A stretch of DNA of 64,000 bases from Clostridia bacterium. GTDB taxonomy: Bacteria > Bacillota > Clostridia > TANB77 > CAG-465. Where the stretch lies: the NCBI GenBank assembly GCA_017521005.1, contig JAFXEC010000011.1:16450-80449 (forward strand). Direction: 5' to 3'. A program made the translations under genes and the position numbers. Positions 5,560 through 64,000 of the stretch are shown in pieces. The stretch's first letter is position 1; each line of letters begins with the position of its first letter. The notes beneath the pieces are model-generated. The model saw nothing but the letters and a program-made list of their open reading frames with translations. It did not search any database and was not told the origin of the DNA.

Positions 5560-5560
5560 C

Positions 5561-7632: not shown

Positions 7633-7642
7633 GAATAATATA

Positions 7643-9538: not shown

Positions 9539-9544
9539 TTTCAC

Positions 9545-10279: not shown

Positions 10280-10308
10280 TTAAAAAAAGGATATTTATGG
10301 GTTAAAAT

Positions 10309-10337
10309 TTGCAATACTTGACATCGTATGGTATAAT
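10309..10337 (+). promoter_or_regulatory. Promoter for the GC-rich small gene
   Basis: TTGCAA, 17 nt spacer, TGgTATAAT (extended -10). Confidence 0.55.
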
Positions 10338-10391
10338 ACATAGTGCTGTAAAAAACACTATGACTATATTTAAATAAATAAGGAGGTTTGT

Positions 10392-10649: not shown

Positions 10650-10767
10650 TTACAAGATATGATTGTATAAGGGTCAAAAAAGAAAAGAGTAAATCTATAA
10701 AAAAAGAGATTTGCTCTTTTCTTTTTATTTAAATTGTAATATAATAACAAGCAAAGAGGTGAAAGTT

Positions 10768-11538
10768 GTGGCAAAAGTAATAGCAATAGCAAATCAAAAG
10801 GGTGGCGTAGGTAAGACTACAACAGCAATCAACTTAAGTGCTTGTGTTGCAGAAAGAGGAAAGAAAGTATTATTAATAGATATAGATCCACAAGGTAATG
10901 CTACTAGTGGTGTTGGTATAGCTAAACAACCAACAGATAAGTCTGTATACGATGTAATAATAAATGAAGATAAAATGGTTGACATAATAAAACCAACAGT
11001 GGTTAAAAAATTATTTATATGTCCATCAAGTATAAATCTTGCAGCAGCAGAGGTTGAACTAGTTCCTTTAATGGCACGTGAAACAAGACTTAAGAAAGCA
11101 ATAGAAGAATTAGAAGAAACTCAACAATATGATTATATATTTATGGATTGTCCACCATCATTAGGACTCGTAACATTAAACGCATTTGCAGCAGCAGACA
11201 GTGTCCTTGTTCCGATTCAATCAGAATATTATGCGTTAGAAGGGTTAGGACAACTTGTAAATACTATTAAGCTTGTTAAGAAGAATTTAAATCCAGATCT
11301 AGAGATTGAAGGCGTTGTAATGACTATGTTTGATTCTAGAACTAGATTGTCTACTCAAGTAGCAGAGGAAGTTGTGAAATATTTTGGAAACAAAGTATTT
11401 GAAACAATGATACCAAGAAATATTAGACTTAGTGAAGCACCAAGCCATGGATTACCAATTACAATATATGATCCATTATCTAAAGGTGCTAGAACATACA
11501 AGAAACTAGCAAAAGAATTATTAAATAATAATAAATAG
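10768..11538 (+). CDS. soj: Chromosome partitioning ATPase Soj/ParA (GTG start)
   Basis: VAKVIAIANQKGGVGKTT deviant Walker A. AAGAGGTG RBS before the GTG at 10768. Confidence 0.93.
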   Translation: MAKVIAIANQKGGVGKTTTAINLSACVAERGKKVLLIDIDPQGNATSGVGIAKQPTDKSVYDVIINEDKMVDIIKPTVVKKLFICPSSINLAAAEVELVPLMARETRLKKAIEELEETQQYDYIFMDCPPSLGLVTLNAFAAADSVLVPIQSEYYALEGLGQLVNTIKLVKKNLNPDLEIEGVVMTMFDSRTRLSTQVAEEVVKYFGNKVFETMIPRNIRLSEAPSHGLPITIYDPLSKGARTYKKLAKELLNNNK

Positions 11539-11554
11539 AACGTAGGAGGAAGTT

Positions 11555-12436
11555 ATGGGAACTAGTAAAGGTTTAGGAAGAGGATTAAATGCGTTATTTG
11601 ATGATATAGAAGAGGTTAAGAGTGTAACAACAAAGGAAAAGAAAAAGGTATTAGATAGTGTAGTTGAGCTTAATGTTACAGATGTAGAACCAATGCCTAA
11701 TCAGCCAAGAAAAGTATTTGATGAAAAAAAATTAGAAGAACTTGCAGATTCGGTAAGAGAACATGGTGTTATTCAACCAATTATCGTAGAAAAAGCAGAT
11801 GAGGGTTACCATATAGTAGCAGGTGAAAGAAGATGGAGAGCTGCTAAGATAGTTGGACTTAAAACAATACCAGCTATAGTTAAAGATTATACGGAATCTA
11901 AAAGAAAGCAAGTTGCTTTAATCGAAAATATACAAAGAGAAGATCTTAATGTAATGGAAGTTGCTAGAGCATTAAAAGAGCTTATGGAAATAGATGAGTA
12001 TACAGTAACAGAGGTAGCTAAAGTAACAGGTAAGAGTCAATCAGCTGTTTCTAACATAGTTAGACTTCTAAAATTAACTCCTGAAGTTCAAGAGTATGTT
12101 CTAGATGGAAAACTTGTTGAAGGACAAGCAAGAGCTCTTCTTACAATAGAAGATGCAGAAGAACAAGTAAGAGTTGCTAAAAAAGTTATTGAAAAGAAAC
12201 TTACTGTTAGAGAAGTTGAAAAACTTATTTATGAAGATGCAAATAAATATAATGTGAAAAAGAAGAAGGTAGCTAAGAAAAGTAGCCTTTATAAAGCTGT
12301 AGAAGACAAATTAAGCGAGTATTTTGGAATGAAGGTAAAAGTAGATGCCTCAAAACAAAATCAACGCCTAATTATCGAATACTACAATAACGAAGGATTA
12401 GAAAGTATACTTGAAAAGCTAGAAATAGAACTATAA
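11555..12436 (+). CDS. spo0J: Chromosome partitioning protein Spo0J/ParB
   Basis: ParB box GERRWRAAK. HTH region follows soj. Confidence 0.93.
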   Translation: MGTSKGLGRGLNALFDDIEEVKSVTTKEKKKVLDSVVELNVTDVEPMPNQPRKVFDEKKLEELADSVREHGVIQPIIVEKADEGYHIVAGERRWRAAKIVGLKTIPAIVKDYTESKRKQVALIENIQREDLNVMEVARALKELMEIDEYTVTEVAKVTGKSQSAVSNIVRLLKLTPEVQEYVLDGKLVEGQARALLTIEDAEEQVRVAKKVIEKKLTVREVEKLIYEDANKYNVKKKKVAKKSSLYKAVEDKLSEYFGMKVKVDASKQNQRLIIEYYNNEGLESILEKLEIEL

Positions 12437-12463
12437 ATGTAATAATAAAAGAAGGTGAAAGTC

Positions 12464-13033
12464 ATGATGAGTATATTAGAAAATGTGAAATATGAACATA
12501 TAGCAATACTTACCCTTTTTGTAATAACGGTAGTAAATTTAATTTTACTATTAAAGAATAATAAAAAGGTTAAGAAATACAAAGAACAATATGAAAAAGT
12601 ATTAGCTAAGTTCAATTCAAAAGTAGATATACAGGATGACTTTCAATCTATTTATGACAGATTAAACGCTGTTGAGAAAAAATCTGAAGAAACTGTGGAA
12701 ACTGTGAATAAGTATATAAATAAAATAAAGAGTAATGTGCAAAAAGTAGGATTTATAAAATACAACGCTTATGATGAGACAGAAAACAAATTAAGTTTCG
12801 CATTGGCGCTCTTAGATGATTATAATAATGGAGTATTGATAAATCATATATATTCCAAACACGGCTCTAATATATATGCAAAATTAGTAACAGAATCTAA
12901 AGTTGAGGATAGAATTTCAGAAGAAGAAGGCTTAGCACTTCAAATGGCAATAGATGATAAAGACTTTAAGTTAAGAATAGTAGGGGAAGTAAAAGAAAAT
13001 AATAAAAAGAAGAAAAGAAACAAAAGAGTATAG
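12464..13033 (+). CDS. DUF4446-family protein typically encoded after parB
   Basis: N-terminal TM. ...FIKYNAYDE...SFALALLDDYNNGVLINHIY... pattern. Conserved position after spo0J in Firmicutes. Confidence 0.6.
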   Translation: MMSILENVKYEHIAILTLFVITVVNLILLLKNNKKVKKYKEQYEKVLAKFNSKVDIQDDFQSIYDRLNAVEKKSEETVETVNKYINKIKSNVQKVGFIKYNAYDETENKLSFALALLDDYNNGVLINHIYSKHGSNIYAKLVTESKVEDRISEEEGLALQMAIDDKDFKLRIVGEVKENNKKKKRNKRV

Positions 13034-19361: not shown

Positions 19362-20141
19362 TTATTTTTTAGTATCTTTTTTATCTTTATTGTTCTTTTT
19401 ATCTTCCTTTTCTGCAAGTGCAGCTAAAAGATTTGTGTATTTATCCATAAACTTATCATGTGCGGCTTGTGGTATTTCTAAATCAAATGGTTTGAACTCA
19501 AAATTCTTGTCTTTACGTGAAATTAATTCTTTTACAAAGAATTCCAGTAGTTTAGGGTTTCGCGCAAGGATAGGACCAAGCAAGTATGTGCCACGGAAAC
19601 TATTGTGCTTGAAACCTTCTACTCCAGAGTCTTTTTCAGCACCATAACCCTTGATTATTTCAAACATAGGAAGGGACACCTTTCTTAAAATTCCTTGATG
19701 GTTTTCAAAACCTAGGATTAAATCATCTACTTTTTTATGTTTGAATACACATTCAGAAACTTTTCTTTCTTTTGTTCTTTCTGTGAAATAATGAAATATT
19801 CCGAGAGTTTCTACTTTGTTTTCGCCATCTTGTATATGTGTACCAAATAATTCTACTGAATTACCAGTTACTAAGAAGAATTTACCACCCAATACGGCTT
19901 GGGAAATAGCAGGTAAATATTTTTTTAGGTAATCTAAAGCTAGTAATTGGTTTGCTTCAGTTCCGGCACCTATATATACAAGATCTAAATCTCCAAGGTA
20001 AAGCTCGTCATTTAGAGATATCTCTTTAATTTCAACTTCTATACCTTGTTTTTCTAGAGCATATTTAAGTGCTAGTATGTTTCCGCTTTCACCATAAAGG
20101 TTAAGTATATCGTAAAATAAATGTCCAATTGTTATTTTCAT
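19362..20141 (-). CDS. gatD: Lipid II isoglutaminyl synthase glutaminase subunit GatD (class I GATase-like)
   Basis: CobQ/GatD-like GATase fold. Overlaps the murT stop (TAATG). Confidence 0.8.
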   Translation of the reverse strand: MKITIGHLFYDILNLYGESGNILALKYALEKQGIEVEIKEISLNDELYLGDLDLVYIGAGTEANQLLALDYLKKYLPAISQAVLGGKFFLVTGNSVELFGTHIQDGENKVETLGIFHYFTERTKERKVSECVFKHKKVDDLILGFENHQGILRKVSLPMFEIIKGYGAEKDSGVEGFKHNSFRGTYLLGPILARNPKLLEFFVKELISRKDKNFEFKPFDLEIPQAAHDKFMDKYTNLLAALAEKEDKKNNKDKKDTKK

Positions 20142-21475
20142 TACACTTCCTCCTTCTTAGCAAAAGTTGATTTAAATGGTTCTACATAGTCAAAATTAAG
20201 AATTCCAAATATGTAGTCTGTTTTATTCATATCTACAGCTTCTTTAGCTTCAGTTAAGTTATTAAAGATGTATATTTGTTCATTTGGATAGCCAGCAAAA
20301 ATTAATCTTGTGGCTATATCATAGGCATTTGGCCCTGCACAAATAATGTTTTTTACATCGGGCGTGTTTAATATTTCAAAGTCTATATCATATAACCAGG
20401 ATAAATCATCAAATGCATATCTTCTGCTTATTTCTTTCCAACCGATTACTACTGTTTTAGAACCATTAAATCTTTCTGTGAAAAGTAAAGATTGATTAAA
20501 TGTAGTACTGTTTTCGTTTTTATTATTTAACACATACACATCACTATCGTTGTATTTGTAGTGGTTGTACATTTTAGAGTTAGCGTTAAGTTCGCTAATA
20601 TGTTTAGCAACCTCTGTTTCGTCTAGACCAAGTGCGCAAGCAGTGGTATATGCAGCCATTGTGTTGTATACACTGTATAATAAATCGTATTGTAATTTTA
20701 CTTTGTGTTTATTATCTACAGTCATTTCAAAGTTTGGATAATCTATATTTGTAATAGTGTATTTAGATTCAGGATGACCGAAGTCGCATTTTGGACAATT
20801 AAATTTGCCGTGGTTTTCAAAATGATAGTAGTCATATACTAATTTCGTATTACATTTTGGACAGTAATTTATATTTAAATTCTTAAACTTTTTATCGGTA
20901 TAAGATAAATCAGTTTTATCTAAAGAATAATATGTAGTTTCATATTCGTTTCCTAAATTGAATTTTTGAAGATATGGATCATCGCCATTTAAAATTAAAT
21001 GTGCATGATATGGTAATGCTTTTTTTATTTCTTCATAAACTAAATCTACGTGGCCTTGCCTTGGTGGTTGGTCACGAGTAATGTTTGTTATTACTATGTG
21101 ATTTGGTTTAACATCTGGAAATGCAAATTTTGCATATCTTTCGTCCATTTCAAAAACAAATACATCACCTTTAACTTTACCAGATAATGTACAGTTTTCT
21201 AAAAGCGTTGTAGTTATACCTGCAGTTAGATTAGCACCAGATGCGTTATGAACAACTTTATAGCCCATGCTTCTATATATGTGAGCAATTATACTCGAAG
21301 TACTTCCTTTACCAGAAGAACCAGTAACAGCGATTTTAAGTTCTGGTAATTCTAGTTTTGTTAATAATTTTTTATCTATTTTAAGAGCAATATCTCCAGG
21401 CAAAGAACTTCCTCTTTTAAGAATCTTACCTGCAACAATTGCAGCTTTTCCTAAAATAATTGCTAATGATTTCAT
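20141..21475 (-). CDS. murT: Lipid II isoglutaminyl synthase Mur-ligase subunit MurT
   Basis: Mur ligase P-loop ...IAVTGSSGKGSTS... and C-terminal Zn-ribbon-like CPKCNTK...CPKCDF (DUF1727-like). Confidence 0.82.
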   Translation of the reverse strand: MKSLAIILGKAAIVAGKILKRGSSLPGDIALKIDKKLLTKLELPELKIAVTGSSGKGSTSSIIAHIYRSMGYKVVHNASGANLTAGITTTLLENCTLSGKVKGDVFVFEMDERYAKFAFPDVKPNHIVITNITRDQPPRQGHVDLVYEEIKKALPYHAHLILNGDDPYLQKFNLGNEYETTYYSLDKTDLSYTDKKFKNLNINYCPKCNTKLVYDYYHFENHGKFNCPKCDFGHPESKYTITNIDYPNFEMTVDNKHKVKLQYDLLYSVYNTMAAYTTACALGLDETEVAKHISELNANSKMYNHYKYNDSDVYVLNNKNENSTTFNQSLLFTERFNGSKTVVIGWKEISRRYAFDDLSWLYDIDFEILNTPDVKNIICAGPNAYDIATRLIFAGYPNEQIYIFNNLTEAKEAVDMNKTDYIFGILNFDYVEPFKSTFAKKEEV

Positions 21476-27531: not shown

Positions 27532-27591
27532 TATAAAAGATAATAAAAGCTCTATTTTATAGAGTTTTTATTATCTTTTTATCAAAATTAT

Positions 27592-27620
27592 TTGACAAAT
27601 GCAAAATGGTAAGGTATAAT
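27592..27620 (+). promoter_or_regulatory. Strong sigma-A promoter driving an ORF-less transcript
   Basis: TTGACA, 17 nt spacer, TATAAT. Preceded by the yfmH terminator hairpin at 27545-27575. Confidence 0.65.
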
Positions 27621-27626
27621 ATGGCC

Positions 27627-28070
27627 CTACAAACAATTTAGTAGATACTAACTATGTATCTTGTTGTATGTTAGAGTAGTGTTTTGAATGCGATTATTGC
27701 ATGTGCCCGCGAAACCCGACCACGGGTGGTGCTATAGGTTAGTAGCGGCGAGCGAACGCTTGGCACTAGCTGGGTAATGAAACCTTAATCGGCGGCTAAG
27801 ACCCGTTAGTAGAAACACAACTTTGATATAAATATGTTGGATAATCCGATGTATCCGAAAGGACTTGGTTATTCAAGGTGAATGGCATAAGCGTGAAGGG
27901 TAAACGTGACATGTCAGCGGGGAAGACTGCAAAGATATACTATATAACAAAACCGTCCGGAAGGATTTGTTACGAACTAGTATACTCCTCGTAGATGAAA
28001 AGGGGTAACCCACTCCTTATCTAATAGTCTATAAAGCAGGAAAGAGGCACGCAGGCCTCTTTCTTTTTTT
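27627..28070 (+). ncRNA. Candidate structured noncoding RNA (~440 nt, GC-rich) with 23S-rRNA-like motifs
   Basis: No ORF of 60 aa or more. GC far above local background. Ends in GC hairpin AAAGAGGCACGCAGGCCTCTTT plus T-run. Contains GAAACCCGACCAC, AGTAGCGGCGAGCGAAC, CTTGGCACTAG and GGGGTAACCCAC, which resemble the 23S 5-prime domain as recalled. Confidence 0.5.
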
Positions 28071-29318: not shown

Positions 29319-29843
29319 GTGATTATAATTTTAGGAAAGTTTATAACAAGAGATGTATCAAGTTTGTACAATATAGAAAGAATAGCTGAGGATGGCGTCA
29401 TATTTGCAAATAAAAGAAAAATTAGTATTTACAAAGTAAATCCGGTAAATATAATAGCTTGGAATAAGGAAATGAAAAACAAAATAATATCAGCATATAT
29501 AGCCACGTTAAGGGGAATGCCAGACATGTTTCAAATAGTTGTGACAAAGCAAAAAAGCACATTGAAAAACGATATAGAACTGTACAAAAAAAGGTTGTTA
29601 GAAGTCGAAAATTATGGGTTGAAAATGGCTCTTAAGAATTATGTGGAATATTTACAAAAGATAGAAAACGAAAATGGAATATGCGAAATAAAACACTATT
29701 TAATAGTAGAAGAAAAAGGAAGAGAAGAAACAGAGAACATACACAATGCGTTTTTAAATATGAATGAGTTTGGTATGGAAATAAAAAGGGTAAATAGAAA
29801 AGCGGAAGTTGAAAATGTTATTAAGAGAGCGATGGAAACATGA
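29319..29843 (+). CDS. VirB4/TraC-like ATPase, N-terminal segment (split gene)
   Basis: ...EDGVIFANKRKISIYKVNPVNIIAWNKEM...IISAYIATLRG...FQIVV... matches the VirB4 N-domain pattern (DGiI..kiY.l.dvN...e.e.i...f..fL...Qi.i). Stop overlaps the next ATG (ATGA). Confidence 0.55.
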   Translation: MIIILGKFITRDVSSLYNIERIAEDGVIFANKRKISIYKVNPVNIIAWNKEMKNKIISAYIATLRGMPDMFQIVVTKQKSTLKNDIELYKKRLLEVENYGLKMALKNYVEYLQKIENENGICEIKHYLIVEEKGREETENIHNAFLNMNEFGMEIKRVNRKAEVENVIKRAMET

Positions 29844-31516
29844 GACGAAATACTGAAATTAAAAAGATTCTGCCGTCAGAGGTAAAAGAAAAATACAATT
29901 GTATGAAAGTGCAAGCAAAGTATATAAATGTGATGAGTATAGTAAGTATGAACGAAGTGATTTTCCTAGAGATGATTAATACTCTACTTTTACAAGAGGA
30001 AGTAACTATATCGTTTCATATATATAGACAAAATGGTCCAGAATTCTTGAGAAAATTAGCAAGAAGTGTGTTGGAAAGTGGTGCGGAAATTAAATCAATA
30101 AAGCAAAATCAATTGGATATTGAAGTGTTGGAAAAAAACAAGAAGAATGCCGAAGAAATAAAAAAAGAAATACAGGTAAATAATGAAGAAGTATATATAG
30201 TAGAAATATATGTTGCGCTTACAGCAAATGATGAAAACGAAGTGCTAAAAAAGAGTAATAATATAAAAAATGTTTTATATACAAAAGGAATTGTGTTGAA
30301 CCCAACATATTTTAAGCAAAAGAGCGGATATATTGCAACTTTGCCGTTGTTACAAACAAACAGCACATTAAGCGATTATACGGAGAATATTATGCTTACT
30401 ACAACTCTTGCAAGGATGTTCCCATTTTTTGAAAATGACATTTTAAATGAAAATGGAGTGTTTATAGGATGTCACGAAGATAAACATATTAAGTTATCAC
30501 TTCTTGCCCCACAGAATTTAAATTATAATATGTGTGTTTTTGGAAGTAGTGGAGTCGGAAAATCATTTTTTATAAAAGTATTAATAATGCGTAATTTTTA
30601 TAATAATGTTAATCAAATAATAATAGATCCAGAAGGTGAGTATAAGGATATAGTTTTAAGTTTAGGCGGGAACGTTTATGATATAGCAACATACAATCCT
30701 ATGTATATTGAAGAGAGATTTGCAAAAAGAAATGAAGATTTTTTAGCTGATACGATAAAACTAACGGAAGAATATCTATTTTATAGGCATGGCTTAGAAA
30801 ATGTAACATCACAAATAAAGAATGAATATTTAAAATATGGGATAACACAAGAGATAGAAACGCTTTATGAAAAAAGTAGAGAAGACAAAATATATTTGCA
30901 CCCTAAATACAAGACAAACTTCCCGCATATTAAACACATCTTGGATAGATTAAAAATACAGAATAACTTAAAAGAAACTGCTGGAATACCTACAACAGCT
31001 AAATTACACTGCTTTGTATTAAAGGGCAAGAATAAAGAAGAAATTAACAAAGAAATATCGGTATTTCTTCCTAAAATAAAACAATTAATACAAGAGAATA
31101 CGTTAATTTATTTTGATGAAATATGGAAAACAATAAACGCAAATATTACGGGGACTTTTATAGAAGAGATATATAATTTTTTCAAAACTTTAAGAAAAAG
31201 GAAGGCAGGTATAGTAGCTATTAGTCAAGATATAGGCGATTTATTTGCGATAGATGATGGTAATTTTGGAAAGAGTATATTAAACAATTCGTTTACTAAA
31301 ATATTTTTCAAAATGTCTTATTCGGATTTAGAAAAACTTCAAGGTATAGAAGAAACATTGAATTTGAGAGAGAAAACAACAAAGTTGATTAGAGGCGAAG
31401 CATATGTTCTACAGGGAGAAAGTAAATTTATTATTAGAATAGAAGCAAATGATTTCGAAAAAAATTTAATTGAAAAGGAGAGTGTATATGAAGAAAGTTT
31501 TAATAGCAATGGATAA
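29840..31516 (+). CDS. VirB4/TraC-like (CagE/TrbE) ATPase, C-terminal ATPase segment
   Basis: Walker A FGSSGVGKSF, IIIDPEGEY, Walker B LIYFDEIWK (DEAW-type) and AISQDIGDLF. Confidence 0.7.
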   Translation: MRRNTEIKKILPSEVKEKYNCMKVQAKYINVMSIVSMNEVIFLEMINTLLLQEEVTISFHIYRQNGPEFLRKLARSVLESGAEIKSIKQNQLDIEVLEKNKKNAEEIKKEIQVNNEEVYIVEIYVALTANDENEVLKKSNNIKNVLYTKGIVLNPTYFKQKSGYIATLPLLQTNSTLSDYTENIMLTTTLARMFPFFENDILNENGVFIGCHEDKHIKLSLLAPQNLNYNMCVFGSSGVGKSFFIKVLIMRNFYNNVNQIIIDPEGEYKDIVLSLGGNVYDIATYNPMYIEERFAKRNEDFLADTIKLTEEYLFYRHGLENVTSQIKNEYLKYGITQEIETLYEKSREDKIYLHPKYKTNFPHIKHILDRLKIQNNLKETAGIPTTAKLHCFVLKGKNKEEINKEISVFLPKIKQLIQENTLIYFDEIWKTINANITGTFIEEIYNFFKTLRKRKAGIVAISQDIGDLFAIDDGNFGKSILNNSFTKIFFKMSYSDLEKLQGIEETLNLREKTTKLIRGEAYVLQGESKFIIRIEANDFEKNLIEKESVYEESFNSNG

Positions 31517-32729
31517 TGAAACGTTACTTAGTCAAATAAAAAAATGTGGTAAATATTTAACATATGGTTATGATATTGATAATAAAGAAAATGTACTAGA
31601 ATATTTAAGTAAAAATGTGGTTGATGTTATAGTTACGAAAGACACGTTAAATGGAGATATTGAATTTAAGGAGTATATAAGAGAAATAAGAAAAAGACAA
31701 GAGACAATAAAAATTGTAGTAGTAATAGCAGCGCTAACGGAAGATATAAAAGGTTTTTTGTTAGCAAATGAGGTAAATAACATAATAGAAGGAGAGTGTG
31801 TAGCATTTAGCAAAATACTAGAGATGATAGATAGCAAAAGTGGAATAATAGAGAAAATGGAAACACAAAAAAATGTGATAAAACAAAGTCCAAAGATAAC
31901 TACAAAGCAAAAGATTTGCGTTTTTGGAACAAGTGGTGCAGGTAAATCATATATTTCAAGCATACTAGCACACCACATTAGTAAAAAATACAAATTGAAC
32001 ACATTGCTTATAGATATGGATCTCCAAAACGCCGCGGTGGATATATATAACAATTTAACAAATGCTACAAATTCACTGGATTGTTTGATGGAAGAAATAG
32101 ATAATGACACTTTTAATAGAGAGTCCTTGCTAGATTATATTAGTAGGGGTGAGAAAAATAATAAACTATCGTTTATAACAAATAACGTAGGCGTTTATGA
32201 ATGTCAAAATAGGTTGTCTAAAAAGTATTATGAAAAATTGTATACGGAAGCGGAAAAAAATTATGACACTATAATAATAGATATGCCGTCAACACCATTT
32301 TTAGATGTAGTTCCGTTTTCGCTTATGCAAGCAGATAAAATTCTGTTTGTGCTTAATCCTAATTTTATTAGCATTAGACAAGCTATAAAATATATTGATT
32401 TAATGGTAAATGTATGGCAAATAGATAAAGAAAAAATATTTTTAATAATAAATAAAACAACCGAGAACTCTTTAACACTTAAACAAGTGAAAGCAATGTT
32501 AAGAGATTATACTGTGTTGCTAAAGTTGGAAGAAACGAGAAATGTTGAAAAAATAGTAAATGGTTTAGCAAATATAACTGGCGAAGAAATAATAGATACA
32601 GATGAATTGACAAAGATGTTAAATATAGATGACTGTGTACAAAGAGTGAAAGGTGAGGAAAAAACGAGTGCTTATAAATGCATACAGAACTGTTTTGGTA
32701 GAAAAGAAAACAAAAAAGATACAAAATAG
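31488..32729 (+). CDS. TadZ/CpaE-like ATPase: receiver-like N-domain plus ParA/MinD-type P-loop domain
   Basis: N-terminal ~130 aa with CheY-like pattern (MKKVLIAMDNETLL...VVDVIVTKD...). Then VFGTSGAGKSYISSILA P-loop and ...LLIDMDLQN.... Confidence 0.6.
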   Translation: MKKVLIAMDNETLLSQIKKCGKYLTYGYDIDNKENVLEYLSKNVVDVIVTKDTLNGDIEFKEYIREIRKRQETIKIVVVIAALTEDIKGFLLANEVNNIIEGECVAFSKILEMIDSKSGIIEKMETQKNVIKQSPKITTKQKICVFGTSGAGKSYISSILAHHISKKYKLNTLLIDMDLQNAAVDIYNNLTNATNSLDCLMEEIDNDTFNRESLLDYISRGEKNNKLSFITNNVGVYECQNRLSKKYYEKLYTEAEKNYDTIIIDMPSTPFLDVVPFSLMQADKILFVLNPNFISIRQAIKYIDLMVNVWQIDKEKIFLIINKTTENSLTLKQVKAMLRDYTVLLKLEETRNVEKIVNGLANITGEEIIDTDELTKMLNIDDCVQRVKGEEKTSAYKCIQNCFGRKENKKDTK

Positions 32730-33843
32730 TAACGAAATAATAAAGCAAATTGCTAAGCGATTGTTGGATGAGGAACTAGAAACAATAGAAAAAGGAAATA
32801 AAGAAAAGCTGGTTAAAAAAATAGAAACCAATTTAATTAATGATTTTGAAATAGTGGAAGAAAAAACAGTAGATTACTATATAAAGGAAGTGCTAAACAG
32901 AATATATGGATACGGTATTTTGGAAAAGTTTTTAAGGGATGGAAAGACTACAGATATACGAGCAGTCGCGTTTGATAACATTTATATAAAGCAGATGGGA
33001 AAATGGAAAAGAGTAAATGAAACATTTGCGAACAATGAAGAATTTGAAGAATATATTAGATTTTGTGCATTGAAAAACAATTATAATATAAACAACGAGA
33101 ATCCTATTGGAGTTTTTAGTGATAGAAAAATGGGGCTCAGAATAGAAGCTGGTATAAGCCCGGTTAATATTAACAATTCTAGTTTGGTTATAAGAGTTCA
33201 CAGAAAAGAGATGGATAAAACATTAGAATTATTAAAACAAAAATATAAGATGTTAGACGAAAAATCATATATGACAGTTAAAAAAGCTGTAAACAGAATG
33301 AATAATATTTTAATTTGTGGAAAAGGCGGGAGCGGAAAAACGACATTGCTAAGAGCGATTATAAATGAGCTGCCACAGACTATTGCTATAAATACTAATG
33401 AAGAAACGGCAGAATTGTACTTAGAAGGAAGAAATGTTATTCAAAGAGAGTGTTTGTTGACTAGAACGGAAGACAAGAACATAGATTTGGATAGACTGTC
33501 TAGGCATTCTTTGGTGATGTCAAATGATGTTATTGTAATAGGTGAATTAAAAGGAAAAGAAGCAAATTCGTTTTTTGACGCGGTTTCAACAGGACATATG
33601 GGACTTGCAACAGTACATTCGGATTCCGCAAAAAACGCAATTGATAGAGTAATTACATTAATAAGAAAAGACTCAAAAGCAACACAATATACAGAAAAAT
33701 TCTTAAGACGATTTTTGGCAGAGACAATAGATTATATTATTTGGATGAAAGATTTTGAAGTGAAAGAAATAAGTGCTATCAAGTATGATGAAATTAATGA
33801 TAAATTTAAGATGGAATTTTTATATAAGAAGGTGCAGTGTTGA
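32653..33843 (+). CDS. CpaF/TadA/VirB11-family secretion ATPase
   Basis: Walker A ILICGKGGSGKTTLLRAII, Walker B ...DVIVIGELKG, His-box-like ...GLATVHSDSAKNAIDR. Confidence 0.7.
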   Translation: MRKKRVLINAYRTVLVEKKTKKIQNSNEIIKQIAKRLLDEELETIEKGNKEKLVKKIETNLINDFEIVEEKTVDYYIKEVLNRIYGYGILEKFLRDGKTTDIRAVAFDNIYIKQMGKWKRVNETFANNEEFEEYIRFCALKNNYNINNENPIGVFSDRKMGLRIEAGISPVNINNSSLVIRVHRKEMDKTLELLKQKYKMLDEKSYMTVKKAVNRMNNILICGKGGSGKTTLLRAIINELPQTIAINTNEETAELYLEGRNVIQRECLLTRTEDKNIDLDRLSRHSLVMSNDVIVIGELKGKEANSFFDAVSTGHMGLATVHSDSAKNAIDRVITLIRKDSKATQYTEKFLRRFLAETIDYIIWMKDFEVKEISAIKYDEINDKFKMEFLYKKVQC

Positions 33844-34706
33844 TAGAAATAATACAATTTAGTTTGTTAATATGTGCTGTATATATAATGGTTGAATGGG
33901 CGATAAAAGATTATATAAGTCCTGTAAAATTACTTAATAGAAGCAAGATGTTTCATTCGTTAAATGTAGAGTTGCAGAACTTAAATATTAAAAGGGGGTT
34001 AAGAGGTAAAGTTCGAATAACTACTTTGACTGTAATTATAATTAGTGCAATTTTGTTTTTAATATTTGTTTTTATTTTATTTATATATATAAGGATTTTA
34101 AGTACCGCCGTAATTCTTTCGTTACCTATTTTAATTTCACCAATAATTATATCTAAAATTCTAGTTATACGAAATAAAGAAAAAATATCTAAGCAAATCC
34201 CTTTTTACACAATTAATATAAAGAATCAAATGAAAGAAGATAATGATATAGTTCAAGCTATAAAAAGAACAAAGGTAGAAGAACCACTAAAAAAACATAT
34301 AGATAAATTCAAATTAAATGTATTTAACGGAATGAATGTGATATCTGCTATGGAAAAACTAAAAAGTGATGTGGATGTAAAAGATTTTGGTGAAATGATA
34401 GAGACGTTTGAAGTTTGTTATAAAAATGGTGGCGATTTTGTAAAAGTGTTAGAAAAAATTATTCTTATGAAAACTAAAGAAAGGATGTATAAAGAAGAGA
34501 CTGAAGAAAAGGCTTTCGCGTCGGTAGTTACATTGATAATAATGATGTTGTTGAGCGTTTTTGTAATTGCAACATTTGTATTTGGTAATTTAGAATATGC
34601 AAATATAGTACGAAGTACATTTGGTGGAAAGCTAATTTTAAATTTAACTGCAATATCGTACATGGTAATGACATGGATAATTGCTAAAGTATATAAGGAG
34701 GATTAA
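33837..34706 (+). CDS. TadB/TadC-like platform protein (T2SS-F domain)
   Basis: TM, then cytoplasmic helical domain (...VISAMEKLKSD...CYKNGGDFVKVLEKI...), then C-terminal TMs. GspF/TadB architecture. Confidence 0.55.
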   Translation: MLIEIIQFSLLICAVYIMVEWAIKDYISPVKLLNRSKMFHSLNVELQNLNIKRGLRGKVRITTLTVIIISAILFLIFVFILFIYIRILSTAVILSLPILISPIIISKILVIRNKEKISKQIPFYTINIKNQMKEDNDIVQAIKRTKVEEPLKKHIDKFKLNVFNGMNVISAMEKLKSDVDVKDFGEMIETFEVCYKNGGDFVKVLEKIILMKTKERMYKEETEEKAFASVVTLIIMMLLSVFVIATFVFGNLEYANIVRSTFGGKLILNLTAISYMVMTWIIAKVYKED

Positions 34707-34707
34707 G

Positions 34708-35436
34708 ATGGATATAGATGCTATGATAGATAGAGTAAGAAATAATGTGCTGGAACTAGACACAGACAGAAGACTAGATGTATTAAAAGGTGATCTACAA
34801 TCGATTTCTGAAAAAGCGTTAGAAAAGTCGATGAATTATATAATAAAATCAATACCTATGCCGGATGCTGTTAGAGATGTATTAAAAGATGTTAAGGAAA
34901 CCATAAAAACGAAAGAGCTTAGGGAGATTATAAAAACAGCAGTAAACAGTAGTATTAGGGAAGGTTTGGAAATAGCGGGCGTATCAAAAACAAATATTAA
35001 TACGTTAAAAGATATGAAAAACTTTGCTTTTAAGGGAGGACTGGTTATATTGTTAAAGAATGGCCTCGAGATAGTGGAAAATAAGTTCTTGAAAAATAAC
35101 ATTGTAAGCGATTATGTGTATAGTTTTTTTACAAAACTAAAAAACTGCATTTTAAGTAAGGAATTCTTAAAGAAGATAGATTCAATGGTGGATAGATTAA
35201 CAAATAAAAAACAAGAATACATTGAAAAATGTGAATCGTGGTATGATGCATATAGAAGCATGGATATAGTTAAGATTAATAAGTTATCTGAAGAGCTTGG
35301 GACTAATCATTATATAATTTCTAGATATGATGACTGCAATAGAGAAAATAAAATAATACAAAATATGACAAAAATGATAAATGCTAAAAAAGGGTTCCTT
35401 TCATTAGAACAGCAAAAACTGTGTGAATCAATGTAA
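34708..35436 (+). CDS. Hypothetical helical protein (243 aa) in the secretion-like cluster
   Basis: AAGGAGG RBS before MDIDAMIDRV.... No TM. Confidence 0.5.
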   Translation: MDIDAMIDRVRNNVLELDTDRRLDVLKGDLQSISEKALEKSMNYIIKSIPMPDAVRDVLKDVKETIKTKELREIIKTAVNSSIREGLEIAGVSKTNINTLKDMKNFAFKGGLVILLKNGLEIVENKFLKNNIVSDYVYSFFTKLKNCILSKEFLKKIDSMVDRLTNKKQEYIEKCESWYDAYRSMDIVKINKLSEELGTNHYIISRYDDCNRENKIIQNMTKMINAKKGFLSLEQQKLCESM

Positions 35437-35494
35437 TTTCGGGTATTGAAAGCAAAAATAATATGTAGTATAATGGTGCCAGGAGAGGGTGTTT

Positions 35495-35725
35495 ATGTCT
35501 AAATTAAAGGAAGTTCCAAATGCAAAAGCAAAATTAATAGGGATGTTAATATCTATAGCACTGATGGTATTTTCTGTTACGCAAGTATATTATCTTGCAT
35601 TATACACATTTGGACGTGAAATATCTGAAGATAAATTGGCAGTATATAAATGGGTTGTAAAGCTTGTTAATTATGACGAAAAAACAGATTCGACATTACA
35701 AGATGCTGCGCCAGATGCCGAGTAG
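35495..35725 (+). CDS. Small single-TM protein (76 aa)
   Basis: GGAGAGGG RBS before ATG MSKLKEVPNAKAKLIGMLISIALMVFSV.... Charged N-terminus, one TM, acidic tail. Confidence 0.45.
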   Translation: MSKLKEVPNAKAKLIGMLISIALMVFSVTQVYYLALYTFGREISEDKLAVYKWVVKLVNYDEKTDSTLQDAAPDAE

Positions 35726-39338: not shown

Positions 39339-39401
39339 GCCTAAAATCTAGACAAAAATATGAATATGTAATAAAATAAAAACATAAAGAGAGGTAAACA
39401 A

Positions 39402-40436
39402 ATGAGAAGAAAACAAGGTATATCATTAATAGTTTTAGTTATTACAATAATAGTGATGATAATATTAGCAGCAAGTGTAGTAATAACACTAAGTAATACT
39501 GGCGTAATAAACAGAGCAGGTGAAGCAGTAGACTTAACAAATGAATCAGCTGTACAAGACTTAGCTGCGTTGGTGTGGGCAGATGCTTACATGGATAATA
39601 AAAGAGGAACAGATCTAGTAAATGAAGTAACAACAAAATTAGGTGAACAAGGAGTAACTTCAGACAAATGGAATATAACTGTAACAGATACAGGAGTAAC
39701 AGTTACAAATAAAAACAGTTCATCTGGTACTGGTTTAGGTTCATTAATAACAGCAGCAAATTATGGAGATAAAGTAGACTACTCTGTAACAGTAGATGGC
39801 ACTACATATGATGATTGGCAAATATACTACCACAATGCAGACTATGTATATTTAATATCTGAAAGCTATGTTGAAGAAGTTTCGTTAGACAAAGGAACAA
39901 CAGTAGAAAGTTTAACAAGTGATGAATTAGCATTATATGAAAAATTTAGAGTAGGAAATGGAGCTAAATATACATTGATAGATACATTAACAGATGGAAA
40001 TGATTATACAATGTATAACTGTAAAGCAGTAGCACAACTAATAAAAGATTATGCTAATTTTGCAAACAAAACAACATATGGAACAAATGTAGTTGGTGCA
40101 ATAGGCGGACCTACACTAGAATTATTAGCAGCGGGATGGAATGCAAAAGGATACACACCAACAATGACAGTTTCGATAGATACAAAGGGGTACAAAATAA
40201 ACAATAGCTTTGGTGAAGGAGTAACAAGTGATGGATTATATGTAACATCAGATTACTGGTACTGGTTGGCGTCTCCGTCTGCTGGCAGTAATATCGATGT
40301 TATGTCTGCGTGCGATGGCCTTGTGGAATTTAGCCACTACAACATTCCTTACGGCGTGCGTCCCGTAGTTTGTCTAAAATCTAGCATTCCTGCAACAGTA
40401 GGAACAGGAGATTGCGATTTTAGTTTAACAAAATAA
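39402..40436 (+). CDS. Secreted or surface protein with type IV pilin-like N-terminal segment
   Basis: MRRKQG-ISLIVLVITIIVMIILAASVVITLSNTGVINRA resembles a class III signal (charged leader, Gly, hydrophobic helix) but lacks Glu5. Paralog at 63553. Confidence 0.5.
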   Translation: MRRKQGISLIVLVITIIVMIILAASVVITLSNTGVINRAGEAVDLTNESAVQDLAALVWADAYMDNKRGTDLVNEVTTKLGEQGVTSDKWNITVTDTGVTVTNKNSSSGTGLGSLITAANYGDKVDYSVTVDGTTYDDWQIYYHNADYVYLISESYVEEVSLDKGTTVESLTSDELALYEKFRVGNGAKYTLIDTLTDGNDYTMYNCKAVAQLIKDYANFANKTTYGTNVVGAIGGPTLELLAAGWNAKGYTPTMTVSIDTKGYKINNSFGEGVTSDGLYVTSDYWYWLASPSAGSNIDVMSACDGLVEFSHYNIPYGVRPVVCLKSSIPATVGTGDCDFSLTK

Positions 40437-40576
40437 CGAAGGTACAAAATAATTGTGCGCAAGTAGTGGCTAGTATCACTTGCGTAAGCGCACGAAAATC
40501 GGATGATGTATATGATACATAAAAAACGAATTCTAAATTTGTTAGAATTCGTTTTTATTTTAATTATTTAGCCGTA

Positions 40577-50357: not shown

Positions 50358-51119
50358 ATGAAGGGATTAACATCAAACAAACTAAAAATTATTGCAATAG
50401 TACTTATGATATTAGATCATATAGGGTATTATTTTGTAAGTTATATATCTAAAGAAGCTTTTGATGTATTAAGATTTTTTGGAAGAATGGCAATGCCAGT
50501 GTTTGCATTTTTAATAGTGCAAGGCTTCTTCCATACAAAAGATATCAAAATATATATGTTTAAGTTGTTTATAACTGCAACAATTTTTCAAGGATTATTA
50601 TTTGGCTTGGGGATAATAAATCATGTATATGTACCAAACTTTTATATAGTAATAAACACATATCTAAATATATTGTATTCTTTTGTACTATCTTTAATTA
50701 TGTTATGGTTAATAGATAAAAAAGATATATTAAAAAACAAATGGTTAAATTATATACTAAAGATAGTTGGTATAGCATTAATTGCTTTTGTGTACCATTT
50801 AGTAGATTTAGAATTAGGATTAAGAGTACCTGTAACAATATTAGGATTTTATATAGCAGAGAAAATAAAAAGAAGTGGTAAAACAGCTGAACTGACACAA
50901 GTGGTAATGCTAATTACGCTTGTACTAGCGTTATTTGCGGATTATGATAATCTACAATTTAACTTACCATCGATTTTATCTATATTTATTATATCGTTAT
51001 ATAACGGTGAAAGAGGTAAAAAGAACAAATGGATAAGCACAGCTTTTTATGTTTTTTATCCGCTACATCATGTGATATTATATGTTACAGCATTAACAAT
51101 AACACATATAGTGAGGTAG
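50358..51119 (+). CDS. TraX-family membrane protein
   Basis: MKGLTSNKLKIIAIVLMILDHIGYYF... is the TraX signature. Confidence 0.75.
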   Translation: MKGLTSNKLKIIAIVLMILDHIGYYFVSYISKEAFDVLRFFGRMAMPVFAFLIVQGFFHTKDIKIYMFKLFITATIFQGLLFGLGIINHVYVPNFYIVINTYLNILYSFVLSLIMLWLIDKKDILKNKWLNYILKIVGIALIAFVYHLVDLELGLRVPVTILGFYIAEKIKRSGKTAELTQVVMLITLVLALFADYDNLQFNLPSILSIFIISLYNGERGKKNKWISTAFYVFYPLHHVILYVTALTITHIVR

Positions 51120-53377: not shown

Positions 53378-53603
53378 AATAAAAGAGATTTTATATAATG
53401 CGTGTGACGATGATAGGGTATACGAAGATGGAATAGATTTGTTAGAAGATGTAATAGATTCGATGGCCTTAATAGAATTTATATCCGCGTTAGAAGATGA
53501 ATTTGATATAGAAATATCTCCTACAGAAATACCATTAGACAATCTAAGAACGATAGATGGTATAACGGAATTTGTAGAAGGGAAGATAAGCGAAAATGAA
53601 TAA
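53367..53603 (+). CDS. DltC-like carrier protein
   Basis: 78 aa acidic. Phosphopantetheine Ser in ...DVIDSMALIEFISALE.... Confidence 0.65.
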   Translation: MKDKIKEILYNACDDDRVYEDGIDLLEDVIDSMALIEFISALEDEFDIEISPTEIPLDNLRTIDGITEFVEGKISENE

Positions 53604-55161
53604 AGAAGAAACAATGAAAATTGGAAACAAAATACTTCATATAACTACAGAGATATTTATAGCAGTAATGATAATAGTGTTTCCGTTGCTTGTAGATAGT
53701 ACGGGCTTTTTTAGAATATTAGAACTTAAATGGTATAGTCATCTTACAATAGTAAGCACATATATTTTTGCTATACTTTCGATTTTAATATATTTCTTTT
53801 TGGTGAAAAAAGTTAATTTGTTAAAAGGAAAAAAGTTTACTAAAACTAAATTCTTTATGATAGCGTTTTTAGGAATAAATGCAATATCTACATTTATATC
53901 TCCATATTTCAAAACGCATGATTTACTAATAGGATCTGGAAGAGGAGAAGGACTAATAAATATCTTGCTATATACAGTAAGCTTTTTATTTGTAAGCACA
54001 TTTCTTAAATTTGAGAAGAGGCAAATTAACTATTTTGCAATATCTGCATTAGTATTTAGTACAATATGTGTTACACAATATTTTGGTTTTAATCCATTTA
54101 ATATGTATCAAGATGGAATAGGAACACATAACGTAAGTTTTATGGGAACAATAGGTAATGTGGATTTTATATCTGCATATTATACAATAGTTTTAACAGT
54201 ATCTCTTGTAACATACTTGTTTATTTCTGAAAGCAAGTGGCAGAGCTTTCTTAATTTAACAGCTGTAACGATGGGAATATTTATATTCCAAATAATAGAT
54301 GTGCAAAGCGGGCTTGTGGCATTTATGGCAGTAGCTGCATTGCTTGCACCATATATACTTCTTTCTGGTGAAAGATTTAGCAAAGCTTTGGTTGCTTTGG
54401 CGGGCGTTGTAGTAGGATTTTTTGTAGATTTAGTTATTAATCTAAAATATGTGTATGCTACAAAAGAGCTTGTTTTTGATTTTCAATTTAATGAGTTGGC
54501 AATCGGAATGATAATATGTATAGCACTGTTATTAATATTAGCTTGGATATTAAAGAAAAAAGATTATTATTTATTGCATCAAAGAAGACGCATAATTATT
54601 ATATATGGACTTATGATTCTTGCGGTAATAGGTGCTCTGGTAGTACTATATATGAAAGATTTTAACGTAGGTATATTGCATGAAATACATGATATACTAC
54701 ACGGAAATTTCAAAGATGAATATGGAACATATAGAGTGTTTTTGTGGAAAAGAGCTATTAAGTTAGTAGAAGAAGCGCCAGTAATAGGGACAGGAAGTGA
54801 TACCTTTGCTATTAGGTTTATGAGTAAGTATACACAGGATGTAGCAGCACTTGGTAAGTTAACAATAAATGATACTGCGGCAAATGTATATTTAACAATA
54901 TTGGTAAATACAGGCGTTGTAGGATTAATAGCATATGTTTGTATAGTATCATCTGTTCTGCTTAAAATGCTAAAGACAGCATTAGTTGGAAAACTAGAAG
55001 ATAAAATAGTTCATGGAAATACATATTATTATTTAATGGCTATAGCAACATTTGCATATGCTGTACAAGACTTCTTTAATTTGTGGGTTGTTATAGTAAC
55101 ACCGATATATTTTGTTACTATGGCAATGACAGAAAATATAAAGAATAAAGATAATGTTTAA
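53596..55161 (+). CDS. O-antigen ligase (WaaL/Wzy_C)-like polytopic membrane protein
   Basis: About 12 TM. Periplasmic-loop motif ...APVIGTGSDTFAIRF... resembles the ligase G.G.G.F signature. Confidence 0.5.
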   Translation: MNKEETMKIGNKILHITTEIFIAVMIIVFPLLVDSTGFFRILELKWYSHLTIVSTYIFAILSILIYFFLVKKVNLLKGKKFTKTKFFMIAFLGINAISTFISPYFKTHDLLIGSGRGEGLINILLYTVSFLFVSTFLKFEKRQINYFAISALVFSTICVTQYFGFNPFNMYQDGIGTHNVSFMGTIGNVDFISAYYTIVLTVSLVTYLFISESKWQSFLNLTAVTMGIFIFQIIDVQSGLVAFMAVAALLAPYILLSGERFSKALVALAGVVVGFFVDLVINLKYVYATKELVFDFQFNELAIGMIICIALLLILAWILKKKDYYLLHQRRRIIIIYGLMILAVIGALVVLYMKDFNVGILHEIHDILHGNFKDEYGTYRVFLWKRAIKLVEEAPVIGTGSDTFAIRFMSKYTQDVAALGKLTINDTAANVYLTILVNTGVVGLIAYVCIVSSVLLKMLKTALVGKLEDKIVHGNTYYYLMAIATFAYAVQDFFNLWVVIVTPIYFVTMAMTENIKNKDNV

Positions 55162-63447: not shown

Positions 63448-63552
63448 AATTAATAAAGGAAGTCGTAGAAATACGACTTCTTTTATATAAGTATTGTAAA
63501 AATATGAAATATGTAATAATATAGATACATAAAAGAAAAAGGAGAGAAACAA

Positions 63553-64000
63553 ATGAAAAAGGGTATATCTTTAATAGTTTTAGTAATAACAATAATAGTT
63601 ATGACAATATTAGCAGCAAGTGTAGTAATAACATTATCTAACACCGGCGTAATAAACAGAGCAAGTCAAGCTGTAGATTTAACGAACGAAAAGCAAGTGC
63701 AAGAGTTGGCATCTATGATTTGGATGGAAGAATATATGACTGGTAGTAGAGGAGCGGATTTAATACACAAAGTTATAATTAAATTGTCGCAGAGCAACAT
63801 AAGAGTTAATGATTGGAATATTAATATAAGTAATGCCGGGATAGGTGTAACAAAGAAAGATGGTAGCCTTAATCTATTAGGCAAGATTCCGGCGGGAGGA
63901 AAATACATAACGGCTGATGGCGTGGAATATACATCGGGAGATAATTTTCCTAGTGTAGTGCTATTAGGAGATAAATATGTATATGAAGATTATGAATATG
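63553..64000 (+). CDS. Paralog of the 39402 pilin-like-N-terminus protein (partial, runs off window)
   Basis: MKKGISLIVLVITIIVMTILAASVVITLSNTGVINRA... is near-identical over the first ~40 aa to the 39402 protein. Confidence 0.5.
   Translation, partial: MKKGISLIVLVITIIVMTILAASVVITLSNTGVINRASQAVDLTNEKQVQELASMIWMEEYMTGSRGADLIHKVIIKLSQSNIRVNDWNINISNAGIGVTKKDGSLNLLGKIPAGGKYITADGVEYTSGDNFPSVVLLGDKYVYEDYEY

Follow-up and report, generated by a model that had tools for sequence, protein, structure and literature searches.

Two pilin-like paralogues in a Clostridia bacterium and the probable family of modular cell-surface proteins to which they belong

Two genes on a 64,000-nucleotide stretch of DNA from a Clostridia bacterium (contig JAFXEC010000011.1; G+C content 31%; referred to below as the window) encode proteins that start almost identically, with a short basic leader, a Gly and a long hydrophobic helix, and they raise the question of whether such proteins are processed and displayed in the manner of type IV pilins and, if so, together with which other genes. 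A class III signal consists of a hydrophilic leader ending in Gly or Ala and a following stretch of 20-25 mainly hydrophobic residues, in which a glutamate at position +5 (Glu5) is found "often, but not always" (Pelicic 2023, PMC10191384). A preliminary description of the window regarded the two genes, here called copies 1 and 2, as a duplicated pair and as candidate substrates or pseudopilins of a Tad-like or type IV secretion system (T4SS)-like gene cluster 3 kb upstream. We conclude that both copies very likely belong to a large, lineage-restricted multigene family of modular cell-surface proteins, and we propose, much more tentatively, that the family consists of modular, pilin-derived surface adhesins without Glu5 that are processed by a prepilin-type peptidase and displayed in trans.

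The N-terminus of the copy 1 protein is MRRKQGISLIVLVITIIVMIILAASVVITLSNTGVINRA, i.e. a MRRKQG leader with ISLIVLVITIIVMIILAASVVITLSNTGVINRA after the Gly, and that of copy 2, whose reading frame is cut by the end of the window, is MKKGISLIVLVITIIVMTILAASVVITLSNTGVINRA, with a MKKG leader and then ISLIVLVITIIVMTILAASVVITLSNTGVINRA; common to the two are the short basic leader, the Gly and the sequence ISLIVLVITIIVM(I/T)ILAASVVITLSNTGVINRA (coordinates of all features are given in Table 1). Counted from the Gly, the two proteins share 33 of 34 residues, and BLASTP aligns them over 156 aa with 49% identity (E 5e-42). At the DNA level, nucleotides 10-144 of copy 1 align with positions 63556-63690 (86.7% identity over 135 nt, E 4e-42); most of the differences in the first 120 nt are synonymous, and the promoter-like stretch upstream of copy 1 can be aligned with the region upstream of copy 2. 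A protein of 353 aa, P0184, differs from copy 2 by a single residue over the visible part and serves as its full-length, near-identical counterpart. The near-identical pilin-like N-termini of the two paralogues, the short basic leader with its Gly and the lack of Glu at +5 (Val in both copies) were described correctly from the start, and the statement that the window holds no other pilin also stands: a motif scan and a general scan for class-III-like N-termini, i.e. a short basic leader, a Gly and 20 hydrophobic residues, returned copies 1 and 2 and no third gene. The soluble domains had been said to diverge, which is true only beyond about residue 105; the similarity runs past the helix through a small ectodomain that is conserved too, which makes the conserved unit a module of ~105 aa.

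The view of the two copies as a local duplicated pair is not supported: they belong to a set of dispersed paralogues that numbers at least 14-28 in each genome. Full-length homologues of copy 1 number more than 1,000, and its N-terminal 105 residues match 2,482 representatives of 50%-identity clusters at E<=1e-3 (533 at E<=1e-10); in the best 150 of these 2,482 matches the module is always N-terminal, in proteins of ~93-850 aa. Annotated close relatives come from metagenome-assembled genomes (MAGs) labelled "Clostridia bacterium", most other homologues are unnamed entries from metagenome assemblies, and several relatives bear the name "type II secretion system protein" in the NCBI/nr records from which they come, one JGI record being named "PulG". 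A scan of one genome per GTDB species gave at least 576 pattern matches, 237 of them confirmed, and the best 80 of the 237 all lie within five MAGs (JAZSJJ, JAZTYX, JAFXHJ, JAZOWO and JAZRSA), among which JAFXHJ is from sheep rectum. The distinct modules number at least 14-28 per MAG and ~101 across the examined loci. As judged from these comparisons, the family is confined to a few uncultured gut Clostridia and carries varied, putatively ligand-binding domains on one almost invariant N-terminal module. A tblastn search of phage genomes with the N-terminal module gave no match, a literature search on the motif LVITIIV found no paper, and one on BspA, type IV pilin and Clostridia found nothing relevant.

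The family genes are dispersed among housekeeping genes, and the copies examined have promoter-like sites of their own and terminator-like hairpins nearby, by which they appear to be monocistronic. Sites of the form TTTACA/TTGAAA-N17-TAATAT, similar to that of copy 1, stand upstream of many paralogues, the number of promoter-like sites in the AT-rich window being no higher than in shuffled sequence. The leaders of 92 paralogues with distinct upstream regions, drawn from the related MAGs and from the window, are MKKG (27), MQKKKG (9), MQKKQG (9) and similar sequences, all Lys/Arg-rich and 4-16 aa long including the Met and the Gly. At several loci, namely L025 (four copies), L001, L045 and L062, two to four members lie within 20 kb, which indicates local tandem expansion alongside dispersal; these loci include members of a divergent class B (G/VSLIVLSITILVMAILAAT..., the slash marking here and below the end of the leader). 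In a subfamily with the leader MQKKQG or MQKKKG, a conserved hairpin with a T-run (GCAAAGTAACACATAC...GTATGTGCTGCTTTGCTTTTTT) precedes the ribosome-binding site, ~25-95 nt upstream of the start codons and at different chromosomal sites (L003, L005, L009, L010, L012, L014, L018, L021, L023, L035, L038, L041 and L043); it may be an attenuator, or a terminator that was copied along with the gene. Phase variation by an invertible promoter was considered and rejected, the upstream regions having ordinary promoter-like sites and no inverted-repeat switch.

The modular build is clearest at the C-terminus. Among 72 diverse carriers of the module the commonest C-terminal domains are leucine-rich repeats (LRRs), with LRR_5 (BspA-type) in 27 and LRR_8 in 14, followed by DUF6273, DUF285, Big_2 and HINT, and Ig-like domains are among those of the family. 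Copy 1 consists of the module (residues 1-105), the linker NSSSGTGLG and a DUF6273-like domain, which is modelled confidently in the full-length AlphaFold2 prediction (predicted local distance difference test score, pLDDT, 88.6). The Pfam model DUF6273 (PF19789) matches residues 283-327 only, with E 0.0012 and 19.1 bits, below the gathering cut-off of 23.5 bits; in relatives the same model matches 3 of 72, with E-values down to 7e-18. When the predicted domain was compared with structures by Foldseek, the BFVD matches were phage DUF6273 proteins (E 2.9e-4, probability 1.0), and the PDB match was 9qa6, the Thomasclavelia ramosa IgA peptidase (E 8.7e-3), whose N-terminal domain is a DUF6273 domain (PMC12402451). 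DUF6273 is reported to be C-type-lectin-like and to act as a receptor-binding domain in phages (PMC10743442), and the predicted C-terminus of copy 1 has the same fold as these known DUF6273 proteins, i.e. a C-type-lectin-like, ligand-binding fold. The counterpart of copy 2, P0184, has a probable BspA-type LRR C-terminus: its match to LRR_5 (PF13306), at E 3.3e-6, reaches 27.4 bits and falls just short of the cut-off (27.7); among the 27 module carriers with LRR_5 the E-values reach 2e-83. The structures of the soluble domains, which the preliminary description left to prediction, are thus modelled as a DUF6273-like fold for copy 1 and tentatively assigned as a BspA-type LRR for the counterpart of copy 2. 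A diversity-generating retroelement acting on the DUF6273 domain was rejected as a candidate, for the window contains no template-like repeat of the copy 1 gene.

Constraint on the helix was measured by the proportions of synonymous (pS) and nonsynonymous (pN) differences over 101 distinct paralogues, collected with a motif that allowed alternatives at most positions, none of which was used. The 24 helix codons gave pS 0.455 and pN 0.073, the segment after the helix pS 0.59 and pN 0.21, and the one after that pS 0.58 and pN 0.31. Positions +1 to +13 of the helix are invariant save for two single-sequence exceptions at +10 and +12, and positions +17 to +19 always hold small residues, A-[ASTG]-[SATG]. 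High pS together with low pN argues for purifying selection on the protein and not for recent gene conversion; by this codon-level comparison the membrane helix is under strong purifying selection at the protein level, and the constraint is unusual, stronger than expected for a plain anchor or the core of a signal peptide. Selection on the N-terminus had been suspected from the conservation of the first ~120 nt, and this part of the claim is borne out, but what is conserved is the protein, not the DNA.

How far does this constrained N-terminus resemble that of a pilin? Copies 1 and 2 have both the leader and the hydrophobic stretch of a class III signal. The Gly that ends the leader is invariant in three alignments (A2, A3 and A4, of 73, 72 and 31 sequences); the 24 hydrophobic residues directly after it, ISLIVLVITIIVMIILAASVVITL, have a mean Kyte-Doolittle hydropathy of 3.15 over the first 20; and the N-terminus aligns without a gap, and in register, with canonical prepilin signals ([KQ]G/x[ST]LIxL...ILAA). 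A profile search of the N-terminus against the PDB returned only 13 twilight matches, none significant, of which three, each aligned at residue 1, are subunits of type IV filaments: the MshA pilin, a chain of 5z1l named "Flagellin", which we take to be an archaellin, and geopilin. The whole copy 1 protein gave nothing significant in a profile search of PDB sequences. The only NCBIfam match is PRK10506, "prepilin peptidase-dependent protein", at a non-significant E of 0.09-0.36, which drops from 0.36 to 0.009 once Val5 is replaced by Glu in silico; a match to Arch_flagellin is sub-threshold (E 0.11), TadF is matched by one of 72 members only (E 8e-4), and there are weak matches to DUF4179 and Holin_LLH, families with a transmembrane helix plus a helix. 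Modelled alone by AlphaFold2, the module forms a continuous helix over residues 5-64 (60 residues), a helix at 70-82 and a hairpin at 90-103 (pLDDT 75), which suggests a shape like the pilin lollipop, whose globular head packs against the C-terminal half of a ~50-residue helix.

The junction recurs outside the family. Four further pilin-like classes in the same MAGs, divergent in other respects, also lack Glu5 (the +5 residue in other pilin-like classes of the related MAGs is Val, Met, Thr or Leu) and all keep [KRQN]G/[IV][ST]; one of them retains Gly14-Ile-Leu-Ala, and GISLIVLVITIIV itself occurs in distant orthologues of a protein of 150 aa that belongs to one of these classes. An N-terminal signal that is common to unrelated ectodomains points to a common recognition step at the Gly. 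This 150-aa protein belongs to a conserved three-gene unit that stands before rpsO and encodes a GH18 enzyme, the 150-aa protein and a protein of ~522 aa (L062 18609-21146; L071 15114-18161; L082 8419-12032; L084 8427-12041). The two proteins beside the enzyme bear other pilin-like N-termini without Glu5, and the 150-aa protein is single-copy, has the size of a major pilin and has the distant orthologues with the signal just mentioned. As a minor-pilin or machinery locus the unit was rejected, its neighbours being rpsO and a P-type ATPase gene, with no machinery.

The explanation that we put forward, as a possible one that falls short of being probable, is the following. The N-terminus would target the protein to Sec/YidC, by which it would be inserted N-in/C-out; an A24 (prepilin-type) peptidase encoded elsewhere would cut off the leader after Gly6; and the module, presumed to be of pilin descent, would act as a pilin-like subunit that keeps the binding domain on the cell surface. 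The parts of such a module would be a basic leader of 3-15 aa, the invariant Gly, the 24-residue helix, an amphipathic continuation and a small head of helix and hairpin. Since Glu5 is missing, a capping or tip subunit, a short pseudopilus or a bindosome-like display would be likelier than the shaft of a classical pilus, and the numerous paralogues would make up a set of alternative adhesins. Tip-capping subunits are known to lack Glu5 (PMC10191384), and modular pilins carry grafted adhesive domains (PMC8179133). The in-register likeness, the junction that is invariant across classes, the constraint on the helix and the modular architecture lend processing and display a measure of plausibility, though they leave both somewhat doubtful.

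Several results weigh against prepilin-type processing. Glu5 is absent from every member, Val standing at +5 in 101 of 101 paralogues; the pilin signature models behind IPR012902 (Pfam N_methyl PF07963 and TIGR02532) are unmatched even at E<=10. The rule used by PilFind, (G/A)xxxx(D/E), would reject these proteins. In the full-length AlphaFold2 model the helix is broken, with low confidence, at residues 29-44, a break that would fit a transmembrane anchor with a hinge equally well, and a Foldseek search of the N-terminal module alone against the PDB gave no pilin and no significant match. Pfam and motif scans found no A24 peptidase or PilB/C/M/N/O-type gene in the window, where the Pfam scans covered ~47 of the larger open reading frames (ORFs) and left out a few, e.g. 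20141-21475 and rpoC; nor did a crude search by motif and approximate query find one in ~1.2 Mb around ~100 paralogues, and the same sequences contain no canonical GFTLIE-type or Glu5-bearing major pilin. The recurrent neighbours within 4 kb of ~109 family genes are only housekeeping families, e.g. EF-Tu, response regulators and ABC transporters, and pilus-type genes do not recur in the vicinity of the ~100 paralogues. The proposal is weakened by the unmatched signatures, by the lack of Glu5 throughout and by the failure to find a major pilin, a peptidase or a machinery nearby. The peptidase negative in itself is weak evidence, because the searched loci make up an estimated ~10-20% of each MAG with a bias to the flanks of family genes, and because the search consisted of GxGD-type motifs in six frames (window and 77-86 loci) and of phmmer with an approximate Pseudomonas aeruginosa PilD sequence. 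The prepilin peptidase for which the preliminary description suggested a search was accordingly not found in the parts of the genomes that were covered.

The strongest rival, in our estimate a real possibility but somewhat less likely than our proposal, is an uncleaved signal anchor, i.e. a type II (N-in/C-out) transmembrane segment, possibly of pilin ancestry, with residues 35-105 as a stalk that carries the binding domain through the wall and with neither peptidase nor filament. It accords with dispersed and apparently monocistronic copies among housekeeping genes near which no pilus or peptidase gene was found, with the missing Glu5, the unmatched pilin signatures and the lack of a Foldseek pilin match, with the helix break after the transmembrane segment in the full-length model and with the weak DUF4179 and Holin_LLH matches; an N-terminus of the same type also heads the small GH18 operon, which has no pilus genes. 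An anchor, however, leaves unexplained why 13 helix residues are essentially invariant over more than 100 paralogues at a pS of 0.46, why the Gly and the [ST] at +2 are invariant over five divergent classes, and why the N-terminus matches prepilin signals in register.

That copies 1 and 2 are specific pilins or pseudopilins of the adjacent Tad/VirB4-like cluster, which would be a subset of the mechanism proposed above, is unlikely. The cluster encodes a TraC-like piece (174 aa), a VirB4-like ATPase (558 aa), a TadZ-like receiver plus ParA protein (419 aa), a CpaF/VirB11-like ATPase (396 aa), a single-domain T2SSF protein with a TadB/C-like layout (289 aa) and proteins of 251 and 78 aa. It is syntenic in five other lineages (L078, L080, L081, L085 and L086), with an ATPase identity of 53-72% (59% over 78% coverage for P0354), together with flanks that comprise, in this order, YqeY, the M16 peptidases, YlbF, the tRNA deaminase and rpoB; the 251-aa protein has 246-251 aa across the lineages and the last protein ~78 aa. 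The split between the TraC-like piece and VirB4 is also seen in L078/L079, L080 and L086, three ORFs being called there in L085, and a split that recurs across lineages is not a frameshift artefact. The set of TadZ-like receiver plus ParA, CpaF/VirB11-like ATPase and single-domain T2SSF platform speaks for the pairing of cluster and family, the cluster has no pilin of its own in any of the five lineages, and it is the only filament-type ATPase and platform set, as the families without Glu5 are the only pilin-like proteins, that we observed in these genomes, for which reason the two may yet be linked in trans. Tad systems reportedly descend from archaeal systems whose pilins lack Glu5, which would suit such a pairing.

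Against the pairing stands, first, the syntenic neighbourhood of the sister MAG JAFXHJ (L078): there the phosphatase gene comes immediately after the ATP-grasp gene, the two tRNA-Arg genes and the same terminator, and copy 1 is absent from a neighbourhood that is otherwise syntenic throughout. Copy 1 is therefore an insertion or a loss specific to one lineage. At the cluster in the five syntenic lineages there is neither a pilin-like gene nor a peptidase, no homologue of the cluster lies in the ~100 paralogue neighbourhoods, and the ATPase is 50-60% identical in lineages that have no family member in the 21-kb surroundings. The context of the cluster is of a housekeeping and sporulation flavour (Spo0E-like, YlbF, Amidase_3 and spmA/B-type "Gate" genes), it includes VirB4/TraC-like parts while one relative encodes a TrbC/VirB2-type pilin elsewhere, and neither a TadV-type peptidase nor an Flp motif (G/xxxxEY) was found at it. 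Because the copy 1 slot is empty in JAFXHJ, the five syntenic clusters lack a pilin-like gene and no cluster lies near the ~100 paralogues, the physical closeness of the family genes to the cluster looks coincidental. The tie to the cluster 3 kb upstream that the preliminary description proposed is therefore not supported on these same three counts, and of the two outcomes that it named together as refuting it, an uncleaved signal anchor and homologues unlinked to any type IV filament or T4SS genes in other genomes, the second is what we found. In terms of synteny, the cluster is a deeply conserved core system, separate from the family. An equally improbable extension of our proposal is that a bacterial display system of the type IV filament or bindosome-like kind, free of Glu5 as archaeal systems are, operates in the clade, with at least 25 interchangeable modular pilins per genome bearing lectin, LRR or Ig heads and with the TadZ/CpaF/TadB-plus-VirB4 cluster possibly as the motor.

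Cleavage by signal peptidase I after +17 to +19, with release of the protein and wall binding by the 35-105 segment, is more improbable still. The small residues always present at +17 to +19 fit the -3/-1 rule and there is no C-terminal anchor, but the hydrophobic run continues past the putative site (VVITL) without a polar c-region, the ILAA motif is also part of the canonical pilin helix, and the invariant core contrasts with the cores of signal peptides, which normally vary; a genuine type I signal of the same clade, MKKTIKLVAIFLILIAMTNSVFA/AS, is quite unlike it, with an 11-residue core. That the shared 5' end is a mere by-product of recent duplication or gene conversion without functional meaning, as the 87% DNA identity over the first 135 nt and the shared upstream stretch might suggest, is refuted for practical purposes by the helix, where pS (0.455) is nearly as high as downstream (0.58) and the amino acids are unchanged, and by the conservation of the module over at least five species-level MAGs and ~2,480 clusters.

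Further features of the window and of related loci were recorded beside these genes. The window begins in the replication origin region (positions 1-13000, with dnaN and dnaA on the minus strand, then rnpA, yidC, jag, mnmE, mnmG, rsmG, parA and parB), which places both pilin-like genes no more than 64 kb from the origin. In L084 (JAZLWW), a gene for a TrbC/VirB2-type pilin that has a classical signal peptide occupies positions 575-922, between dnaJ and the gene that follows; it is absent at the same place in JAFXHJ (L082), and its product is a possible alternative partner for the VirB4/VirB11-like cluster. The window also encodes a TraX-family protein (50358-51119) and a Wzy_C, i.e. O-antigen-ligase-type, protein (53596-55161); elsewhere, members of these families modify pilins, by acetylation of F-pilin and by PilO/PglL glycosylation. 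At 27590-28060 lies a non-coding unit of ~450 nt with a strong promoter-like site (TTGACA...TATAAT) and a terminator hairpin, ~98% identical to JAFXHJ (L078) as against 72% for the neighbouring CpaF-like ATPase (one protein compared) and replaced by an ORF in L080. It contains a 23S-rRNA-like string (GTAGCGGCGAGCGAA), has no Rfam match and gives a folding z-score of -1.9, and is a candidate new small RNA.

Table 1. Positions in the window of copies 1 and 2, of their parts and of neighbouring features
Feature	Position	Strand	Basis or remark
VirB4/TadZ/CpaF/TadB-like conserved cluster	29319..35725	+	Domain matches; context only, not shown to belong with the pair
Promoter-like site of copy 1 (TAGACA-17-TAAAAT)	39349..39377	+	Score 10/12; 25 nt before the start codon
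Copy 1, complete gene, modular pilin-like surface protein	39402..40436	+	ORF, ATG start, 344 aa
Leader MRRKQG with the invariant Gly at its end	39402..39419	+	Candidate prepilin-type cleavage site G6/I7
Conserved N-terminal module, aa 1-105	39402..39716	+	Predicted helix, second helix, beta-hairpin
Hydrophobic helix ISLIVLVITIIVMIILAASVVITL, 24 residues	39420..39491	+	alpha1N-like; Val at +5
Predicted C-terminal DUF6273 / C-type-lectin-like domain, aa ~112-344	39735..40433	+	After Ser/Gly-rich linker
Terminator-like hairpin separating copy 1 from the convergent phosphatase gene	40522..40556	.	15-pair stem
Terminator-like hairpin of the gene preceding copy 2	63459-63480		
Sequence preceding copy 2, with the ribosome-binding site and a stretch also conserved before copy 1 (ATATGAAATATGTAATAATATA...ACATAAAAG)	63490..63552	+	Alignment
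Copy 2, 5' part of the paralogue	63553..64000	+	149 codons, then the window end cuts the frame

If the family is processed like pilins, the idea of the modular pilin widens from one or two minor pilins to a genome-wide repertoire of swappable heads on an invariant stem, a bacterial lineage can do without Glu5 altogether, and signature surveys have a blind spot, as IPR012902, PilFind and N_methyl all miss the family. If the proteins are anchors only, they would still probably be the main adhesin repertoire of poorly known Clostridia of ruminant and other animal guts, and the extreme conservation of the membrane helix would still want explaining. In either case the analysis sets the family apart from the neighbouring VirB4/TadZ/CpaF/TadB cluster.

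Among known systems, Tad/Flp and TadE/F come to mind by the TadZ/TadA/TadB-like set in the same genome. Flp pilins, however, have 50-80 aa, the motif G/xxxxEY and a place at the tad locus with TadV, whereas the family proteins have 344 and ~353 aa, ISLIVL after the Gly and genes outside the cluster in all five syntenic loci. The DUF1559 / H-X9-DG families of Planctomycetes, Verrucomicrobia and Lentisphaerae also comprise dozens to hundreds of dispersed genes per genome for proteins with a prepilin-like N-terminus; they differ in a canonical GFTLIE with Glu5, in having one type of C-terminal domain and in belonging to diderm phyla. Archaeal proteins with class III signals, i.e. archaellins, the Haloferax PilA1-6 pilins with their identical hydrophobic domain and the sugar-binding proteins of the Sulfolobus bindosome, share with the family a [KR]G/hydrophobic signal without Glu5, paralogues with one common hydrophobic domain, genes away from the assembly genes and binding domains on a pilin-like N-terminus, and the sub-threshold matches to Arch_flagellin and 5z1l lie in the same direction. 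The family is unlike them in its spore-forming clostridial host, its much larger copy number and its adhesin-like C-termini, and no PibD/FlaK-type peptidase was found.

GspK/PilK tip-capping minor pilins and pseudopilins likewise combine a pilin-type signal without Glu5 with a larger-than-usual ectodomain (Pelicic 2023, PMC10191384). They are single-copy core components encoded in the machinery operon with their partners I and J, unlike the family, and have no sequence or fold similarity to its module. Modular type IV pilins such as PilB and PilC of Streptococcus sanguinis join a pilin-type module through a short linker to a bulky vWA or lectin domain (Raynaud et al. 2021, PMC8179133). The family has the same plan of a small N-terminal module, a short linker and a domain that is not pilus-specific, with an inferred role in adhesion and a proposed location at the filament tip; modular pilins match IPR012902, whereas the family matches no signature and has Val in place of Glu5. 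Modular pilins number one or two per genome in S. sanguinis, and the family at least 14-28 unlinked copies, for which assembly genes, a major pilin and a peptidase were not found. The closest known kind is the modular type IV pilin, of which the family is not a proven member; the family differs from it in the lack of Glu5 and of a signature and in numbering at least 14-28 unlinked copies in each genome.

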